DNA of 11,551 bases from positions 1-11,551 of the forward strand of contig JBDRKP010000011.1 of the NCBI GenBank assembly GCA_043813875.1, read 5' to 3'. The number at the start of each line of letters is the position of its first letter. Within the stretch, counting starts at the first letter, position 1. Origin of the DNA: an archaeon (GTDB lineage: Archaea; EX4484-52; B79-G9). The translations under genes were made by a program, and so were the position numbers. The notes under the pieces are model-generated. The model was not told the DNA's origin, searched no databases, and saw only the letters and a program-made list of their open reading frames with translations. Of this stretch, positions 1,230 to 10,975 are shown piece by piece.

Positions 1230-1811
1230 ATGACAGCATCCTACATCGTCATAGAAGGCATGGACGGCTCAGGCAAGACAACCCAGTCGAAACTCCTCGT
1301 AGAATTCTTAAAAAAGAACCGCTTCAAAGTATATCACAACATCGAACCATCAGGCACAGAAATAGGCAGATTCATCCAGAAGATGATAAAATCAAAAACC
1401 CATCGTCCGGAGACGATTGCCCTCGCATTCGCCCTTGATCGCATGGTCTCATACGATGAGAGCCTGAAGTTCGCAAAAGAGAAATACGACTACATAGTCT
1501 CCGACCGCTCATACATCTCATCGCTTGCCTATCAGCCCTTGCAGGGCTGTAAGTACGATTGGGTAAAAGAGCTCAACCGCTTCGTCGAAAAGCCGGACAT
1601 CGTATTCATTCTCGACATCCCTCTCGAAGAATTCACAAAGCGCCGCGGCAAGACCGACGTCATATTCGAGAACGAGGAATTCCAGAAGAAACTCCGCCGC
1701 TCATATCTCGCCCTGAAAGAAGAACTCCCTTTAGACATCGTGATTCTCGACGGCACGAAGCCGAAATACGAGCTTCACGAGCGCATTCGTGAACTTGTGG
1801 TCAAACTATAG
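1230..1811 (+). CDS. tmk: Thymidylate (dTMP) kinase
   Basis: P-loop IEGMDGSGKTT, EPSG motif, DRSYISSLAYQ motif, PDIVFILDI; 193 aa. Confidence 0.95.
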   Translation: MTASYIVIEGMDGSGKTTQSKLLVEFLKKNRFKVYHNIEPSGTEIGRFIQKMIKSKTHRPETIALAFALDRMVSYDESLKFAKEKYDYIVSDRSYISSLAYQPLQGCKYDWVKELNRFVEKPDIVFILDIPLEEFTKRRGKTDVIFENEEFQKKLRRSYLALKEELPLDIVILDGTKPKYELHERIRELVVKL

Positions 1812-2477
1812 TGCTTGCCTCTCATTTCTGTTCTGGAGAACATCAGGCACGCTCCTCGCCAGATTGAAAAATAATATCCCTAAAAGGACGCCTACAGCGA
1901 CATCACTGAACCAGTGGACATTAAGATATATTCTGCTCAATCCTATCAGTCCTATCATGAAAACATTTGCAAAGATAAACAATATTTTCATGGTCTTGTC
2001 TTTGATATCGTCTTTGAACGCATATATTAAAGACAGGAAAAAAATTGTGGCCACAGTAGCATGCCCGCTCGGGAAACTGTACCCGAAAGCATCGATCAGG
2101 GCGTTTTCAGGTCTCGCTCTCATGACAATATTTTTAAGGAGAAAAACAAGCGCCTCACCACCGCCCATGCAGGCAAGGAACAATGCCGTCTCCCTGTATC
2201 TTTTCAGGTATAGCAGAAGCCCGCTCATGACGATTAATAGTGTGAGTGCCTGATATATGTCAAAGATGCTGCTTACGTGGATCATCGTTTTATTTAGTGC
2301 TGGGCTCCAAAGCGTCGCAATCTCTTTATTGATATATGCGTCTGCTCTTGTGATCTGCTCCTCATATAATACGCCTTTTATTATCAGGAGAAACAATAGC
2401 GCTAGTGTGCCGTTAATCAGGACAAAGTATTTGGATCTTGATACATTCAATATGGTTTTGTTTCTCTCATTTTTCAT
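1806..2477 (-). CDS. PAP2-family membrane phosphatase (undecaprenyl-diphosphatase/lipid phosphate phosphatase-like); likely start ATG 2477
   Basis: All three PAP2 motifs are present: KNIVMRARP, SFPSGH and SRIYLNVHWFSD. Multiple TM helices. A TTTTTAAT box lies about 24 nt upstream of ATG 2477. Confidence 0.9.
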   Translation of the reverse strand: MKNERNKTILNVSRSKYFVLINGTLALLFLLIIKGVLYEEQITRADAYINKEIATLWSPALNKTMIHVSSIFDIYQALTLLIVMSGLLLYLKRYRETALFLACMGGGEALVFLLKNIVMRARPENALIDAFGYSFPSGHATVATIFFLSLIYAFKDDIKDKTMKILFIFANVFMIGLIGLSRIYLNVHWFSDVAVGVLLGILFFNLARSVPDVLQNRNERQAL

Positions 2478-2624
2478 TGTGTATAAATTATATCCGGACA
2501 ATTAAAAAGCTTGAAATGCAACAATTGCGCATGAATTTCATGATTTTTCATTGTGTATAAATTATATCCGGACAATTAAAAAGCTTGAAATGCTCCATCA
2601 CATCGAAATTTCATGATTTTTCAT
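2469..2624. repeat. Tandem duplication, period 73-74 bp, covering the PAP2 promoter and start codon
   Basis: 51 bp identical at 2469-2519 and 2543-2593. AATTTCATGATTTTTCAT recurs at 2534-2551 and 2607-2624. The intervening 14- and 13-nt segments are dissimilar. Confidence 0.95.
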
Positions 2625-2726
2625 ACAGTATTTATCAATGCTGTCACTTAAATAACCGGGCAATAGCTCGACTATTATTTATTCCAAAAAAACAATTCAA
2701 AGAAAAAGATTATTAAAGTGTTGGAC

Positions 2727-2887
2727 TGGACCCGGGTGATTTGACCTTGGCATCTTTCAGATGATATGGAATTAGCTCCACAAGCTTGGTATAATCATAC
2801 ACCGGGCCCGTCTACTTTTACTTTCTTACTGACGACTTTACATCGCCCCCTTCAAGTTACAAAGTGATAATACTTTGTATTACTTGA
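2727..2887 (-). ncRNA. Candidate structured non-coding RNA with a tRNA-like 3' domain (2727-2809)
   Basis: Minus-strand stems: GGGCCCG/CGGGTCC+A, TGGAG/TTCCA, CATCT/AGATG, GGCGAT/GTCGTC, plus a long hairpin at 2852-2887. The G-U pairs work only on the minus strand. A TATATATA box is at about 2908-2919 and T-tracts follow at 2686-2710. No ORF is present. Confidence 0.5.
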
Positions 2888-3084
2888 TATTAATATTATG
2901 TATCTGTATTATATATATACTTCTCCCACGTTATCAGTCATTATTTTGCATGATATGTATTATAAAATATAAAAACACGCATTAATAATACAAAAAAAAG
3001 AATTAGAGCATTTCAAAAATAAACTACTATTCTGTGACATCGTATGGGCTCTGTCGGAATACCGCCGCCTCCCGGGATAAAAAC

Positions 3085-3435
3085 CTACATCTTGCTGTTT
3101 TTCCTGATTTTAGCGATAATATCTCTTATATCGCCATTGGCCTTGAAGAAAGTGATTGAAGAAGAATCATATGGATTTGAATGGATATGGTATTTACGCA
3201 CCTCGATATCAATCGAATCCCCCTCGTTCAGGACAACCTCATTCATACTTCCGTCATCATCAAAGATCTTCATCACGCAGATCCCATTTAGCTGGAAAAG
3301 CGACTCTACAACAGGCCTGTTATGCTTCACAAGTTCACAGCGGGGATAAATCTCGATAGTCCCGATACTCACACGTTCATCCGAATGCGCAATAAGTATC
3401 TTGCCTTCAGAAATATTGTAAACCTCAAAACCCAT
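3085..3435 (-). CDS. Cupin-domain protein
   Basis: 116 aa, beta-rich, with cupin-like motifs HNRPVVESLFQLNG and LNEGDSIDIE..KYHIHSN. Confidence 0.7.
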   Translation of the reverse strand: MGFEVYNISEGKILIAHSDERVSIGTIEIYPRCELVKHNRPVVESLFQLNGICVMKIFDDDGSMNEVVLNEGDSIDIEVRKYHIHSNPYDSSSITFFKANGDIRDIIAKIRKNSKM

Positions 3436-3481: not shown

Positions 3482-4258
3482 TTATAGCTCGATGATATCT
3501 CCGGAATGTATTCGCTTTATTTTAAACATATCATAAAATCGGGCTAATGCAGGCAATTCTGTGCAATGTGTGGGATAAATTTTTTCGATTTTTTCCTTCT
3601 TGAAATACTCTGTCGTTCTTTTAGTGATCTCATCATCTTCCATCAGATGGAAACCCCCTAAAACAGCATAAACCTTTTTTGCGCATGTGACCTTCTTTGC
3701 ATATTCTATGATATTGCAGATACCTGCATGAGAGCAACCTGTAACCACAATTAGGCCTTTATCAGATTTAATCGCAATGCCTGAATCATCCATTATGTAA
3801 TCTTCCTTACGTCCTTCTTTATAAAATGGTGTTTTCTTTGCCTCAAAATCATTCATTCGCGGTATTTCCCCCAAAAAAACAATATTTTCAGATATCTGAT
3901 ACGGCTCTTTAGATAGCATCAAATCAAAAGACTTCCTTGCATCTTCTAAGCTAAGCGCTAGCCCGTTATACTTATCGTTGTCTTTCTTGTACCTTTTGAT
4001 AAAGCATTCAGGATGGCAGATAAGTTTCTTACTTCGTATGAATCTCAACCCATTCCCATGATCCCAGTGTCCGTGGCTCAAGACAATGAGCTCTACGTCC
4101 TCAGGCGAGAAGCCGAGTATTTCATGATTCTTCAGAAACAAATCCGAACTGCCCGCATCAAACAATATCTTCTTCTCTCCTTCAATCAGGAAAGAAAGGC
4201 CGTGCTCGCCACAACATTTTTTACCCGCCAGATTATCATTAAGCACAGTTAGTCTCAT
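3482..4258 (-). CDS. MBL-fold metallo-hydrolase (archaeal dihydropteroate-synthase-like MBL subgroup)
   Basis: EHGLS, LFDAG, HxHxDH (SHGHWDHGNG), GCSHAG, GGFHL and THCT motifs. SD-like GAGGT just upstream (4262-4266). Confidence 0.9.
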   Translation of the reverse strand: MRLTVLNDNLAGKKCCGEHGLSFLIEGEKKILFDAGSSDLFLKNHEILGFSPEDVELIVLSHGHWDHGNGLRFIRSKKLICHPECFIKRYKKDNDKYNGLALSLEDARKSFDLMLSKEPYQISENIVFLGEIPRMNDFEAKKTPFYKEGRKEDYIMDDSGIAIKSDKGLIVVTGCSHAGICNIIEYAKKVTCAKKVYAVLGGFHLMEDDEITKRTTEYFKKEKIEKIYPTHCTELPALARFYDMFKIKRIHSGDIIEL

Positions 4259-4439: not shown

Positions 4440-4985
4440 ATGGTTTTAAGACAGGTACGCATCCATGGCCGGGGGGGCCAGGGCGCAGTCACATCCGCCG
4501 AACTTCTCGCGATAGCCGCTTTCAAGGACGGCAAATACTCCCAGTCATTCCCCTTCTTCGGCGTGGCAAGGCGCGGCGCACCCGTCATGGCATTCACCCG
4601 CATAGACGACAAATTCATCCGCCTAAGAGAGCAGGTAACAAAACCCGATTACGTCATGGTCCTCGACCCGACCCTGATAGATGTGATAGACGTAGCCGAG
4701 GGAACAACAGAAGACAGCATAATAATAGTAAACACATCAAAAAAACCACAGGATCTGAAAATCAGGACCAAAGCAAAAATAGTGACAGTCGACATCACAA
4801 AAATCGCGCTCGACATAATCGGCGCCCCCTTTGTCAACACCCCCATGCTTGGCGCATTCGCAAAAGCGACAAAAGAAGTCACGCTTGAATCCATACTCAA
4901 GGCCATAGAAGAAGAGATGCCCGAAAAGATAGCAAAAAAGAACATGGACGCCACAAAAAAAGTATACGAGGCAACATCATCATGA
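4440..4985 (+). CDS. porG: Pyruvate/2-oxoacid:ferredoxin oxidoreductase gamma subunit
   Basis: RIHGRGGQGAVT, FPFFGV.RRGAPV and NTPMLGAF motifs; first gene of a gamma-delta-alpha-beta cluster. Confidence 0.95.
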   Translation: MVLRQVRIHGRGGQGAVTSAELLAIAAFKDGKYSQSFPFFGVARRGAPVMAFTRIDDKFIRLREQVTKPDYVMVLDPTLIDVIDVAEGTTEDSIIIVNTSKKPQDLKIRTKAKIVTVDITKIALDIIGAPFVNTPMLGAFAKATKEVTLESILKAIEEEMPEKIAKKNMDATKKVYEATSS

Positions 4986-5254
4986 CAACAAAACATTCAC
5001 CAGGCGGAGCGATAACCGATGTCGGCAGTACGATCTCAAACAAGACCGGCACATGGCGCACATTCAGGCCAGTCATCGACACAAAAAGATGCACGGGCTG
5101 CGCAACCTGCGAGCGCTTCTGCCCCGACGGCGCAATCGTCGTCGATAAAGCAAAAAGAAAAGCCGAAGTGGATTACGATTACTGCAAAGGCTGCATGATA
5201 TGCGCAGAAGTATGCCCCGTAAAATGCATCACAAAACAGATCGAAGAAAAGTAA
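4982..5254 (+). CDS. porD: Pyruvate/2-oxoacid:ferredoxin oxidoreductase delta subunit (2x[4Fe-4S])
   Basis: KTGTWRTFRP, two CxxCxxCxxxCP motifs, DYDYCKGC; ATGA overlap with the gamma gene. Confidence 0.95.
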   Translation: MTTKHSPGGAITDVGSTISNKTGTWRTFRPVIDTKRCTGCATCERFCPDGAIVVDKAKRKAEVDYDYCKGCMICAEVCPVKCITKQIEEK

Positions 5255-5267
5255 CAGATGATTCATT

Positions 5268-6422
5268 ATGAACAATACAAAAATGCAGATCCTTGAAGGA
5301 AGCAAAGCAGCAGCCCTCTCCGTCTGCCTCTGCAGGCCGGCATTGACTGTGGCCTATCCCATAACCCCTCAGACCCACATCGTAGAAGCCCTTGCAAAAT
5401 TCATAGCAGACGGCAAACTGGACGCGCGCCACATAGAAGTCGAATCCGAATTCTCGGCAATTTCAGCCGTAGTCGGCGGCTCAGCAGCCGGCTCCCGCGT
5501 CTTCACAGCGACAAGCTCACAGGGCCTCGCCCTCATGCACGAGGTAATATTCGCAGCAGCAGGCATGCGCCTCCCCATAATCATGCAGGTAGCAAACCGC
5601 GCCCTCTCAGCCCCCATAAACATCTGGAACGACTGGCAGGACTCGATATCAGAACGCGATGCAGGCTGGCTCCAGTTATACTGCGAGACCGCCCAGGAAG
5701 TAGTCGACACCACAATCCAGGCATATAAGATTGCCGAAGACAAAAACGTCCTCCTTCCCGTCATGGTCTGCATGGACGGCTTCTTCATAACCCACACCAT
5801 TGAACCCGTAGAGATACCAGAACAAGCAGACGTAGACAGATTCCTACCGGAATACAAGCCGACTCACGCTTACCTCGACCCGAAAAGGCCGATGACCCAG
5901 GGCCCCTTCGCATTCCCTCAACCGTATATGGAAATGAGGAAAGATCTCTCAGACACAATCGACAGCTCAAAAGACACAATCAAAAAAGTCCACGACGAAT
6001 TCAAAAAATCATTCAAAAGAAGCTACGGCAACGGCCTCATAGACGAATACAAAAACAAAGGAAAAAAGACAGTGATGATCACCATGGGCTCCCTCGCAGG
6101 AACTGTAAGGGAAGCAGTAGACGCGAGAGGCGACATCTCATTGGTGAGGATAAGATGCTTTAGGCCGTTCCCGAAAGACGACTTAAGAAAAGCATTGAAA
6201 GATGCAGAGACCGTCATCATACTCGAAAAGAACATCTCTCTTGGCGCAGGCACAGGCGCCCTCTTCGACGAGATAAGGAGCGCCCTTTACGGCGGGAAAC
6301 AGAAAGTCCTCGGCGTAGTCTGCGGCATAGGTGGCTCAGAAGTCACAGTAGAAGACGTAAAAAACATAGCAGAAGAATCAAAGAAAAAGAAAGACGGCGA
6401 CGTCTGGTGGCTGATGAAATGA
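5268..6422 (+). CDS. porA: Pyruvate/2-oxoacid:ferredoxin oxidoreductase alpha subunit
   Basis: AYPITPQT, VESEFSA, TATSSQGLALMHE and NRALSAPINIW motifs. Alternative start at 5283. Confidence 0.95.
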   Translation: MNNTKMQILEGSKAAALSVCLCRPALTVAYPITPQTHIVEALAKFIADGKLDARHIEVESEFSAISAVVGGSAAGSRVFTATSSQGLALMHEVIFAAAGMRLPIIMQVANRALSAPINIWNDWQDSISERDAGWLQLYCETAQEVVDTTIQAYKIAEDKNVLLPVMVCMDGFFITHTIEPVEIPEQADVDRFLPEYKPTHAYLDPKRPMTQGPFAFPQPYMEMRKDLSDTIDSSKDTIKKVHDEFKKSFKRSYGNGLIDEYKNKGKKTVMITMGSLAGTVREAVDARGDISLVRIRCFRPFPKDDLRKALKDAETVIILEKNISLGAGTGALFDEIRSALYGGKQKVLGVVCGIGGSEVTVEDVKNIAEESKKKKDGDVWWLMK

Positions 6423-7276
6423 AAAAAGACGACTTATTAGCACCCGGTCACAGGACCTGCGCAGGATGCGGCCCTGCAATAGCGACACGCATGATGCTAA
6501 GAGCCACAGGTCCGAACATCGTAATCTGCCACGCGACAGGCTGCATGGAAGTGACAACGACCCAGTACCCCACAACCTCATGGAAAGTCCCGTGGATTCA
6601 CGTCCTCTTCGAGAACGCATGCTCCGTGGCATCCGGCGTAAAAGAAGCACTGATTGCACAAGGAAAAGAAGACGTCCACGTCATAGCCTTCGGCGGCGAC
6701 GGCGGCATGGCAGACATCGGATTCCGCGCGATGTCCGGCCTCATGGAACGCGGCCACGACGTACTCATAGTCATCTACGACAACGAAGCCTACATGAACA
6801 CAGGCATCCAGCGAAGCGGCTCAACCCCCTGGTGCGCATCAACAACAACAACCCCCTCAGGCAAGATAAGCAAAGGAAAAGAGCAATGGAAAAAAGACAT
6901 GGTAGCGATTGCCGTAGCCCACCACATCCCCTACGCTGCGACAGCATCAATCGCCTTCCCCTTCGACCTCGAAAAAAAGATAAAAAAAGCACTTTCGATA
7001 AAAGGCCCGAAATTCATCCAGATACACGCTCCATGCCCTGTCGGCTGGTACTTTGAATCAGAAAAGACAATAGAGATAGCAAAACTCGCAGTAGACTCAA
7101 AGATGTGGCCGTTATACGAAGTCGAGGACGGTAAGAAGACCGTCACCTACAAGCCCAAAGGCACCCCCGTAGCAGACTACCTGAATCCCCAGAAGCGCTT
7201 CCGCCACCTGACCGTTGACGACATAAAAGAATACCAGAAGCGCGTAGACGATTACTGGCAGAAGAACTTCGAATGA
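6419..7276 (+). CDS. porB: Pyruvate/2-oxoacid:ferredoxin oxidoreductase beta subunit (TPP-binding); likely start ATG 6419
   Basis: PGHRTCAGCG, TGCMEV, the GGDG...DNEAYMNTGIQRS TPP motif and PCPVGW; ATGA overlap with the alpha stop codon. Confidence 0.95.
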   Translation: MKKDDLLAPGHRTCAGCGPAIATRMMLRATGPNIVICHATGCMEVTTTQYPTTSWKVPWIHVLFENACSVASGVKEALIAQGKEDVHVIAFGGDGGMADIGFRAMSGLMERGHDVLIVIYDNEAYMNTGIQRSGSTPWCASTTTTPSGKISKGKEQWKKDMVAIAVAHHIPYAATASIAFPFDLEKKIKKALSIKGPKFIQIHAPCPVGWYFESEKTIEIAKLAVDSKMWPLYEVEDGKKTVTYKPKGTPVADYLNPQKRFRHLTVDDIKEYQKRVDDYWQKNFE

Positions 7277-10096: not shown

Positions 10097-10975
10097 CTAT
10101 ATAGGAATATTCCCAAACACAGCTTGTTGCATACTCCCCCCGAAATCAAAACTGGGAAGATACCCCGACGTCACAAGAAAGAAAATCACCCCGATAACAA
10201 CCAGCGAAAACAGGTTGATAATGATTCCCTTCTCCATCTCATACCTCTCATCCCTGTTCAAAAGAAACATCAGCACCGTCACCGACAGGAACCCGCCGAC
10301 ATGCGCAACATGCGCAATCCCGTCATTCGCATTGCTCAGAAGCCCGGAGATATCAGCATAGATAGCAAACCACCCACAGATCATATTCGGCAGCGGCACG
10401 ACCGACGAAAAAGTGATCCCGAACGGGTCAAGCAGTATCGCAGCAGCTATGATCCCCATCAAAGCCCCCGACGCCCCGATAGCAGGGACATCAGACCCCA
10501 TAAGAAACAGATTGATAGCCGAATAGAACGCGCTGCTGATGACCAGCGCCCCGAAATATACCATTGCCGTCTTGGCGCTCCCAAGCTTCCTCTCAACCGA
10601 CCTTGAAAAGATAAATATCCCAAACATATTCCAAAACAGATGCACAAGACTCCCGTGAAGGAACCCTGCAGTCACAAGCGTATAATACCTCCTGTAATCA
10701 AGCAGGTTGCTCGGATAATTGATAAGTGCATTAAACGTTTCACTGCTAAGAAAAAACGCAGCAAAAATCGTGACAGCCACATTGGCAATGATTATGGTGA
10801 TCGTGAACTTCGCCTCGAACAGGAACTCATACATATCATAGAACGGCTTAAACAGATCCCCCCACTCCCTTTTGCCGAGCATCACAAGAACAAGAGTGAC
10901 CGGCGTGAGCAAAACATCATAGATCAGCTTCAGCAGGAACTTCGACTCCGGCTCAATCTCCTTATCATCATCCAT
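10097..10975 (-). CDS. Rhomboid-family intramembrane serine protease
   Basis: FLHGSLVHLFWNM, catalytic GASG, catalytic His in AHVAHVGG, multiple TM helices. A TTATATAT box is at 10999-11006. Confidence 0.92.
   Translation of the reverse strand: MDDDKEIEPESKFLLKLIYDVLLTPVTLVLVMLGKREWGDLFKPFYDMYEFLFEAKFTITIIIANVAVTIFAAFFLSSETFNALINYPSNLLDYRRYYTLVTAGFLHGSLVHLFWNMFGIFIFSRSVERKLGSAKTAMVYFGALVISSAFYSAINLFLMGSDVPAIGASGALMGIIAAAILLDPFGITFSSVVPLPNMICGWFAIYADISGLLSNANDGIAHVAHVGGFLSVTVLMFLLNRDERYEMEKGIIINLFSLVVIGVIFFLVTSGYLPSFDFGGSMQQAVFGNIPI

Follow-up and report, generated by a model that had tools for sequence, protein, structure and literature searches.

A candidate family of pseudoknot-tipped small RNAs restricted to three genera of one DPANN phylum

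Genomic locus and sequence features

The stretch of DNA analysed here, referred to as the window, consists of 11,551 nucleotides (nt) of contig JBDRKP010000011.1 (C11) from the archaeal assembly GCA_043813875.1 (G000), a 1.64-Mb genome that is 91.5% complete and whose phylum we take, following its label, to be DPANN. The element under study lies on the minus strand at 2727-2887, where a preliminary description of the sequence had proposed an unannotated structured RNA ending in an 83-nt tRNA-like domain (2727-2809), and it is treated here as a candidate small RNA gene with relatives elsewhere in the phylum. It is flanked on one side by a PAP2 phosphatase gene (1806-2501, minus strand) and tmk (1230-1811, plus strand), and on the other by a gene with a generic MBL fold (3482-4258, minus strand) and the porGDAB genes (4440-7276, plus strand). 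Between porG and the RNA there is also an open reading frame (ORF) of 116 amino acids (3085-3435, minus strand) that gave no Pfam or NCBIfam match.

Inspection of the minus strand showed that GGGCCCGG (2809-2802) pairs with CCGGGUCC (2735-2728) over 8 base pairs (bp), the third of which is G:U, and that this stem is followed by A2727. The segments GUAU-GAUU-AUAC, AGC-UUGUGGA-GCU, CAUCU-GAA-AGAUG and GGUCAAAUC are all present within the 83 nt, two further hairpins (2831-2847 and 2852-2887) and a TATA-rich box (about 2909-2920) lie upstream, and T-tracts occur downstream at 2698-2708 and 2685-2693. Folding of the 83 nt (2727-2809) gave -29.9 kcal/mol with a z-score of -3.49, a value that none of 200 shuffled sequences reached, while the plus strand of the same stretch gave a z-score of -1.91 with 8 of 200 shuffles as good; a 201-nt stretch folded with a z-score of -4.91. 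The minimum free energy (MFE) fold of the 83 nt was a rod with two small hairpins and contained no cloverleaf.

Homologues, paralogues and distribution

Among the matches of a DNA search of related genomes at E<=0.01, two were genuine homologues and seven were chance matches to AT-rich or heptad sequence, and a DNA search of the window's own genome found the RNA in single copy. A covariance model (R1) built from the two homologues located the RNA in all seven other genomes of the genus and, in five of these, a second and diverged gene (b) positioned in tandem about 440 nt upstream of the first (a). The window genome has the a gene but no tandem b gene. Of the 42 genomes of the phylum, 8 contained a strict sequence pattern, and these belong without exception to the window's genus; the reversed control had no match. 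Exact-pattern scans of genome and metagenome contigs added one new copy only, an a-type RNA on the metagenome contig L082. The matches of a broader model (R2) to a second genus and to a single genome from another family were weak; its alignment (A10) was left unused because of four reverse-strand matches in it, and two alignments fitted to R1 (A4 and A7) were too ragged for counting.

A look for the core motif in the window genome led to two further paralogues, one of c-type (C85:11118-11197) and one of e-type (C14:19214-19292), the former by way of one degenerate match to the core 13-mer. This genome carries three copies, on C11, C85 and C14. The ends of two contigs of G000 carry a repeated protein-coding gene that also contains exact extra copies of the core 13-mer, which were rejected as chance.

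The final model (R3), built from 25 copies, identified family members in 11 of 41 genomes of the phylum (6/6 in genus g1, 3/4 in g2 and 1/1 in g7) and in 12 of 151 archaeal genomes, with none in the 109 genomes from outside the phylum, and the number of diverged paralogues ranged from one to five per genome. All copies fell within three genera of one small DPANN phylum, a distribution in which a copy that was not found is not equivalent to an absent one, as many of the genomes searched are incomplete. Every paralogue type has a synteny of its own that is maintained from species to species, and the e-type sequence is, by comparison, the likely orthologue of the RNA of the second genus. One distant family member, at L093 (G019:C34), has an RNase Z gene (TIGR02651, 340 bits) about 290 nt upstream of it in the same orientation. 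The window's MBL-fold gene, which also lies upstream of the RNA, is not RNase Z.

Conserved rod structure

All 14 a/b copies folded individually into a common rod that starts with the basal stem P2 (8-11 bp) and continues through an internal loop, helix P3a, a bulge of 1-2 letters, helix P3b, a tip that holds a GUGGA...UCCAY hairpin, and a variable stretch. The length of the basal stem ranged from 8 to 12 bp among copies. In the window, P2 is the GGGCCCGG/CCGGGUCC stem, P3a joins UGAUU (2793-2797) to AAUCA (2737-2741), and P3b joins ACC (2788-2790) to GGU (2744-2746).

As the 5' half carries no indels between copies, pairs were tabulated by their 5' position. In P2, pairs 4, 5 and 9-10 change on both sides, including position 4 (C-G, U-A, U-G), position 9 (G-C, C-G) and position 10. 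Changes on both sides were equally found along P3, at positions 14 (G-C, U-A), 16 (U-A, G-C), 18 (G-C, A-U), 20 (A-U, G-C) and 22 (C-G, U-G, G-U, A-U), so that exchanges of U-A for G-C and of G-C for U-A are represented in P3a, and in P3b an exchange of A-U for G-C together with the four-way variation at position 22. Every cell of the seven outer P2 pairs was paired on the 14 close copies; on all 25 copies, 89% of cells were paired over the 10 pairs tested and five of these showed changes on both sides. When P2 was taken together with the short helix S1 of the tip (described below), 91% of cells were paired on 25 copies, a value that none of 500 shuffles attained (81.5% paired), and sliding of the 3' partner left 14-51% paired.

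The remaining parts of the predicted transcript are more variable. The region at 2747-2765, which in the window forms the CAUCU-GAA-AGAUG hairpin, is conserved in neither sequence nor structure, and the linker at 2810-2830 is A-rich, single-stranded and of variable length in the alignments. Variants collected from DNA contigs of relatives in four public runs were located in these two parts, as substitutions and indels in the variable hairpin and a 6-nt insertion in the linker, and the single change seen in P2 keeps a U-G pair. Upstream of the linker, the hairpin GGCGAU-GUAAA-GUCGUC (2831-2847) is confirmed by its two closest homologues, where it is kept and a C-G pair is replaced by U-A, and other subtypes have different small hairpins at this place.

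These comparisons bear directly on the two folds that had been put forward for the 83 nt, a tRNA-like cloverleaf and a rod, and they favoured the helices of the rod while leaving the pieces of the cloverleaf unsupported. The proposed UGAUU/AAUCA pairing of the rod is kept among copies; its companion CTTG/CAAG pairing proved to be specific to the window, being an MFE pairing in 0 of 14 copies. The acceptor-like stem is a genuine and conserved basal stem, although its G3:U70-like wobble is not conserved. The D-like hairpin had only 67.9% of its cells paired, its outer two pairs failing to form in 10 and in 8 of the 14 copies, respectively, and the CATCT-GAA-AGATG arm belongs to the variable region and is not conserved. 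The letters GGUCAAAUC, assigned to a T-loop, constitute the 3' strands of P3b and P3a (AAUCA included) and covary with the corresponding 5' strands, and no T stem is present. The comparisons thus indicate that the supposed tRNA-like domain is the conserved 3' domain of an RNA family, with a predicted rod in place of a cloverleaf.

A predicted pseudoknot at the rod tip

At the tip of the rod, two short helices are formed in the window by AGC (2784-2786) with GCU (2774-2776), designated S1, and by GUGGA (2777-2781) with UCCAU (2766-2770), designated S2. S1 is a 3-bp helix of the form W-G-Y with R-C-W that aligned exactly in 25 of 25 copies, with 73 of 75 cells paired. Its first pair is A-U in 7 copies and U-A in 16, with swaps occurring within the a1, a2 and b subtypes, and its third pair is C-G in 5, U-A in 9 and U-G in 11. 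None of 500 shuffles equalled this helix in pairing or in covariation score, and in the slid controls 27-57% of cells were paired. The 3-bp stem that had been described as closing a UUGUGGA loop is this helix, and it has held up well, with 97% of its cells paired. S2 has 5 bp of the form GYGGR with YCCRY, of which 122 of 125 cells were paired on the 25 copies; its second pair is U-A in 15 copies, C-G in 9 and A-U in 1, and its fifth is A-U in 22 and G-C in 3.

The two helices interleave, since the loop of S1 contains the 5' strand of S2 and that of S2 contains the 3' strand of S1, and the pseudoknot loops would be 2, 0 and 2-3 nt, lengths that H-type knots sterically allow. The G-C pair of S1, the GG of S2 and the short loops are the invariant letters of the tip. 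Two interleaved helices, each with covariation, and permissive loop lengths are what characterizes an H-type pseudoknot, and the alignment supports a compact one formed by S1 and S2 at the rod tip, their simultaneous formation being predicted.

Promoter, terminator and heptad elements

The RNA genes share a conserved layout on both sides of the structured domain. In the window, the TATA box GTATATATATAA with its core AAGTATATAT is at 2909-2920 (minus strand); the core is invariant in a-type genes, takes the form of A or G followed by TATATATA in b-type genes at an equal distance to the RNA, and is nearly identical ahead of the genus g2 copies, which have the promoter layout of the a and b genes. 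A separate TATA box also precedes each of the c and e genes. About 20 nt further upstream, a second element, ATGCA(A/T)AAAT (2941-2951), is conserved in the a, b and genus g2 copies and may serve as an upstream promoter element. In all a/b copies a conserved stretch lies about 22-30 nt downstream of the TATA box, and the usual archaeal spacing between TATA box and start would place the start of the RNA there. At the other end, the 3' tail and predicted oligo-U terminator CUUUUUCUUUG (2698-2727) contains a T-tract that directly adjoins the structured part and has a constant place in all a/b copies. The TATA box and downstream T-tract, both noted earlier from the single sequence, are thus conserved among homologues, and along with structure-conserving homologues they bear out the view of a structured RNA separately encoded on the minus strand.

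The predicted start coincides with a pair of heptads. In the window these read GTAATAC-AAA-GTATTAT (2867-2883), and most other a/b genes have GTAATAYAANGTAATAC at this position. The units are spaced 10 bp apart, as direct repeats before most a/b RNA genes and as an inverted pair in the window and before a gene for a ribbon-helix-helix (RHH) protein. The hairpin at 2852-2887, which contains the window heptads, is present in the window as described, but it is a lineage-specific insertion that appears as a gap in 12 of 13 aligned a/b copies, and the copy found later on L082 has a shorter palindrome. The same heptad forms a perfect palindrome, GTAATACAAAGTATTAC, in G000 at C7:2828-2844 (L043:1501-1517), between a TATA box and an ATG. 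The gene behind it (L043:1537-2391) encodes an RHH_1 domain (23.4 bits against a cut-off of 20.5) fused to an NTP_transferase domain, a fusion of the sugar-1-phosphate nucleotidyltransferase type, and GTAATACAAAGTATTAC was situated between TATA box and ATG of such a gene in all six loci inspected, from G000 and five other genomes of several genera (gene identity by eye). This palindrome is probably an autoregulatory operator. Allowing up to one mismatch, the heptad motif was found in 19 of 42 genomes with 41 matches, versus 8 for the reversed control, and heptad pairs in other genomes precede enolase-, nucleotidyltransferase- and alanine-dehydrogenase-like genes (named by eye from their translations). 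The RNA of the second genus has no heptads. Overall, the shared motif suggests that the heptads are a putative operator for the RHH protein, whose regulon would include the a and b RNA genes in the window's genus.

This arrangement resembles that of the RHH repressor omega of plasmid pSM19035, which recognizes 7-bp units in direct or inverted orientation, as the GTAATAC units spaced 10 bp apart would be here. It differs in that the regulator is here fused to a sugar-1-phosphate nucleotidyltransferase domain and its binding is putative.

Comparison with tRNA and other known RNA families

Searches for known RNA families gave no match to the element. ARAGORN called no tRNA or transfer-messenger RNA (tmRNA) gene in the window and none on contig C11 with introns allowed, and over 19 homologue loci it called no family copy, its only calls being four flanking tRNA-Gly genes. 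The Rfam tRNA model RF00005 gave 28 matches at E<=1 across the whole genome, 25 of them over the cut-off and none on C11. For tmRNA, defined by a tRNA-like domain combined with a tag reading frame, there was neither an ARAGORN nor an Rfam match. With Rfam 15, the window gave 0 matches at gathering score, positions 2600-3050 gave only two chance plastid matches at E<=10, and six homologue loci gave at E<=5 one unrelated match outside the RNA; a known Rfam family, a match to which the preliminary description had named as refuting its proposal, was not found. RNase P RNA and signal recognition particle (SRP) RNA have loci elsewhere in the genome, so that the element is neither of these in diverged form.

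As an observation on the genome itself, ARAGORN with introns finds only 16 tRNA genes in G000, many of them with introns, in comparison to the 25 over cut-off with the Rfam tRNA model, a difference that reflects either incomplete assembly of its tRNA genes or a set that is in part non-canonical.

Other families were compared by eye. The 5' part contains GGYGAUG, but in the a, b and c types no CUGA is placed to pair with it as in a box C/D RNA; there is no ACA box after the basal stem, where the letters vary (AGUCC, GUGAG, GGAAU, GUAUA); and tandem G-A pairs are lacking in the a-type rod. The motifs of box C/D and H/ACA RNAs and an a-type kink-turn (K-turn) did not fit and had no Rfam match, and the same was true for the fluoride riboswitch start (GGCGAUG), the pistol ribozyme, the T-loop and a fold like that of hepatitis delta virus (HDV).

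The systems that bear comparison with the family, besides omega, are tmRNA, plant-virus tRNA-like structures, Y RNAs with bacterial YrlA, bacterial Hfq-dependent small RNAs (sRNAs) and Hgc RNAs. With Y RNAs and YrlA, which are bound by Ro60, the family shares small stand-alone paralogues and a conserved long stem with sequence-conserved pairs and a variable remainder. It differs from them in that the conserved stem does not join the ends of the RNA, Rfam gave no Y_RNA or YrlA match, and no Ro60/TROVE gene was found in the window genome (91.5% complete, as above). Like the Hgc RNAs of AT-rich hyperthermophiles, the element is a stand-alone gene forming a structured island, richer in G+C, in AT-rich intergenic DNA; unlike such orphan sRNAs, it has no sequence or structure match to any Rfam family and is confined to three genera of one phylum.

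A further parallel is with Hfq-dependent sibling sRNAs and with archaeal sRNAs bound by Sm (Lsm) proteins. These are likewise modular, with diverged 5' domains and a common 3' structure ending in a U-rich tail, and occur as several paralogues per genome, one of which here lies beside the only LSM gene. In contrast to the simple terminator hairpin of sibling sRNAs, the 3' module here is an 80-nt rod with a pseudoknot; protein binding and targets are putative here, and the adjacency to the Sm gene was checked in two genomes only.

Proposed function

Window positions 2698-2895 (minus strand) are best explained as an independently transcribed sRNA of about 190 nt that belongs to an undescribed, lineage-restricted multigene family, an explanation that we regard as probable. 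That the family is one of functional structured RNAs we consider highly likely. A full-text literature search on DPANN non-coding and small RNA returned nothing on such an RNA in its listings and the opening parts of abstracts.

According to the proposed mechanism, the TATA promoter would drive the RNA from a start about 22-28 nt downstream, at the two GTAATAC-type heptads, and the transcript would end in oligo-U. The shared 3' rod, pseudoknot and U-rich tail would serve as a handle for protein binding and stability, the diverged 5' domains and the A-rich linker would give each paralogue its specificity, and the RNA would act in trans as a ribonucleoprotein (RNP) or a regulatory sRNA. In the window's genus, the RHH regulator would repress the a and b genes from the heptads. 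Action in trans is what we infer from a shared handle combined with variable 5' domains. A common 80-nt rod whose pseudoknot is conserved in sequence, a 3' tail conserved together with its U-tract, diverged 5' parts and several stand-alone genes per genome make up, by analogy, the layout of RNAs with a common protein handle, and we tentatively entertain the idea that the shared domain is such a handle of a trans-acting RNP or regulatory RNA.

Two observations hint at such a handle. At the c-type locus (C85:10372-11260) the order is SmAP (LSM), L37e, tRNA-Gly(UCC) and c-type RNA, and it is the same in G006; the only LSM gene found in the genome is 480-550 nt upstream of the c-type paralogue. 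A tRNA-Gly gene precedes the RNA in all four c-type loci, and the order SmAP-L37e-tRNA-Gly was present in both loci whose ORFs were read. Given the U-rich 3' tail of the RNA, Sm/Lsm binding is a candidate only. Additionally, the 5' domain of the e-type gene (C14:19214-19400) and of its relatives in the second genus (G010, G012, G014) is larger and contains, as judged by eye, a K-turn-like motif, GGGG-GAU-GA...GA-CCCC, that is common to the two genera, and L7Ae genes are present in the genome.

Several considerations weigh against this interpretation. Public sequencing runs included no RNA run in which the stretch was present, and the transcript and its ends are predicted from the DNA. The table of P2 and P3 pairs was made from per-sequence MFE folds, which are biased towards pairing, and when the rod was scored in a fixed register on a MAFFT alignment, 78.5% of cells were paired and 30 of 500 shuffles reached the covariation score, a modest support attributable to indels in the 3' strands. 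The close kinship of the sequences makes shuffle counts overstate the support. A closing helix P1 (5' GGUGAU with 3' AUCACC) was matched by 136 of 200 shuffles for the window copy; it is clear in four b1 copies and one a2 copy and elsewhere is no better than shuffled tails, and it is kept as a tentative candidate. S1 and S2 could be alternative states that do not form simultaneously, a distinction that alignment counts cannot make. Binding of the RHH protein to the heptads is deduced from motif sharing alone, and the Sm and K-turn links are hints from neighbourhood and from inspection by eye.

A more elaborate scheme would describe a modular RNP RNA family of 3-5 paralogues whose 80-nt rod docks a dedicated, possibly Sm-like protein, with one member carrying an L7Ae-type K-turn and two genes repressed by the RHH-enzyme fusion in one genus; this we put forward as a rather doubtful conjecture. 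If true, it would represent RNA-based regulation tied to envelope sugar metabolism in host-dependent archaea. Almost nothing is known of the non-coding RNAs of DPANN archaea, whose tiny genomes make each retained gene informative, and the family is a concrete candidate for a new RNP, with its covariation-supported pseudoknot, its own promoters and, in one genus, an operator shared with an RHH-enzyme fusion. Its narrow range of three genera keeps the interest moderate. We would classify it as a new and narrow family of a known general kind, the stand-alone structured archaeal sRNA, with two unusual traits, a pseudoknot-tipped rod common to the paralogues and a putative RHH operator.

Alternative explanations

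The reading from which the analysis started was a tRNA mimic or decayed tRNA, in which alanyl-tRNA synthetase, RNase P, RNase Z or the CCA-adding enzyme would recognize an acceptor-like stem with G3:U70. It draws on the window copy, which shares with tRNA, the tRNA-like domain of tmRNA and the 3' tRNA-like structures of plant viruses a G-C-rich terminal stem, in this copy of 7-8 bp with G:U at pair 3, and has an unpaired A after it, on the distant family member downstream of an RNase Z gene, and on the tRNA-Gly gene adjoining the c-type copy. A small pseudoknot, here of 3-bp and 5-bp stems, is also a feature of plant-virus tRNA-like structures, where it lies in the acceptor arm, but here it is at the distal tip. 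We nevertheless regard this explanation as extremely improbable. The '3:70' pair is G:U in only 5 of 25 copies, being A:U in 10 and unpaired in 10 (A:U in 10 and G:U in 4 of the 14 a/b copies); with its 8-12 bp the stem exceeds the 7 bp of an acceptor; there is no T arm or conserved D arm, the 'T-loop' letters being helix strands and the 'anticodon' letters being base-paired in S2; and the RNA continues 3' of the stem to a terminator. ARAGORN and RF00005 were silent on all family copies examined. A convincing acceptor stem with G3:U70 in a single sequence can evidently be a chance look-alike. Just as hard to credit is a non-functional repeat, a miniature inverted-repeat transposable element (MITE) or a travelling terminator module, for which several family copies per genome could be cited; the DNA search found one copy in the genome, the paralogues differ widely outside the helices yet keep their pairing, each type has its own synteny and TATA box, and no terminal inverted repeats were seen. 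On the MITE question the result agrees with the preliminary description, which had treated a match to one as contrary to its proposal.

The description had also considered a leader controlling the downstream PAP2 gene, and a cis-acting, riboswitch-like control through read-through of the T-tract in the window lineage is the form in which we weighed it. A PAP2 gene is found downstream of the RNA, on the same strand, in two lineages only, the window (gap of about 200 nt) and metagenome contig L082 (about 45 nt), where a PAP2-type gene fragment aligns with the window PAP2 protein at E 1e-9; the RHH-regulated partner, moreover, is a sugar nucleotidyltransferase, and PAP2 is likewise an envelope-lipid enzyme. 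As a general reading this fails, since the a-type RNA is followed by a convergent tmk and no PAP2 in five relatives (G002, G003, G005, G006, G007) and genes other than PAP2 adjoin the b, c and e paralogues as well as the copies of genus g2. Even in the window lineage it is very unlikely, as the conserved T-tract ends the RNA, and a tandem 74-bp duplication (2480-2631; 40 nt identical between copies) carrying a TATA-like stretch, GGATATAATTTATACA (minus strand), lies between the RNA and PAP2. This duplication is just upstream of, and overlaps, the listed start of the PAP2 ORF, whose promoter may be duplicated. Scarcely better placed is a ligand-sensing or catalytic RNA, in which the invariant tip would be a small-molecule pocket or a self-cleaving core. 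The compact pseudoknot with its invariant letters fits this well, many riboswitch and ribozyme cores being pseudoknots, but Rfam gave no riboswitch or ribozyme match, each gene is an independent unit that has its own promoter and terminator and does not precede a regulated gene, and several paralogues per genome would be unusual for riboswitches. A guide-type or L7Ae-bound RNP RNA resembling small nucleolar RNA, with a common domain that holds proteins and variable parts that pair with rRNA or tRNA, is the least improbable of these alternatives and still unlikely. Several paralogues with one scaffold and different remaining parts, the K-turn-like motif of the e-type and g2 copies and the L7Ae genes are in keeping with it. 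Set against these are the a-type RNA, which by eye lacks both the pair of C (RUGAUGA) and D (CUGA) boxes and an ACA box after the basal stem, the lack of any Rfam C/D or H/ACA match, the missing K-turn-like motif in the a, b and c types, and a complementarity to targets that is not established.

Neighbouring genes and genome observations

In a comparison of promoters, no element was common to the RNA and to the RNase P, SRP and tRNA genes of G000. In the relatives G006 and G007 the gene order is porG, RNA, RNA and convergent tmk, and both the ORF at 3085-3435 and the MBL-fold gene are missing from the equivalent position. The MBL-fold gene, this ORF and PAP2 are therefore insertions in the window lineage.

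Elsewhere in G000, the ends of two contigs (C24:~10400-10638 and C37:~2800-3041) carry near-identical copies of a protein-coding stretch, and this repeated gene probably breaks the assembly at both places.

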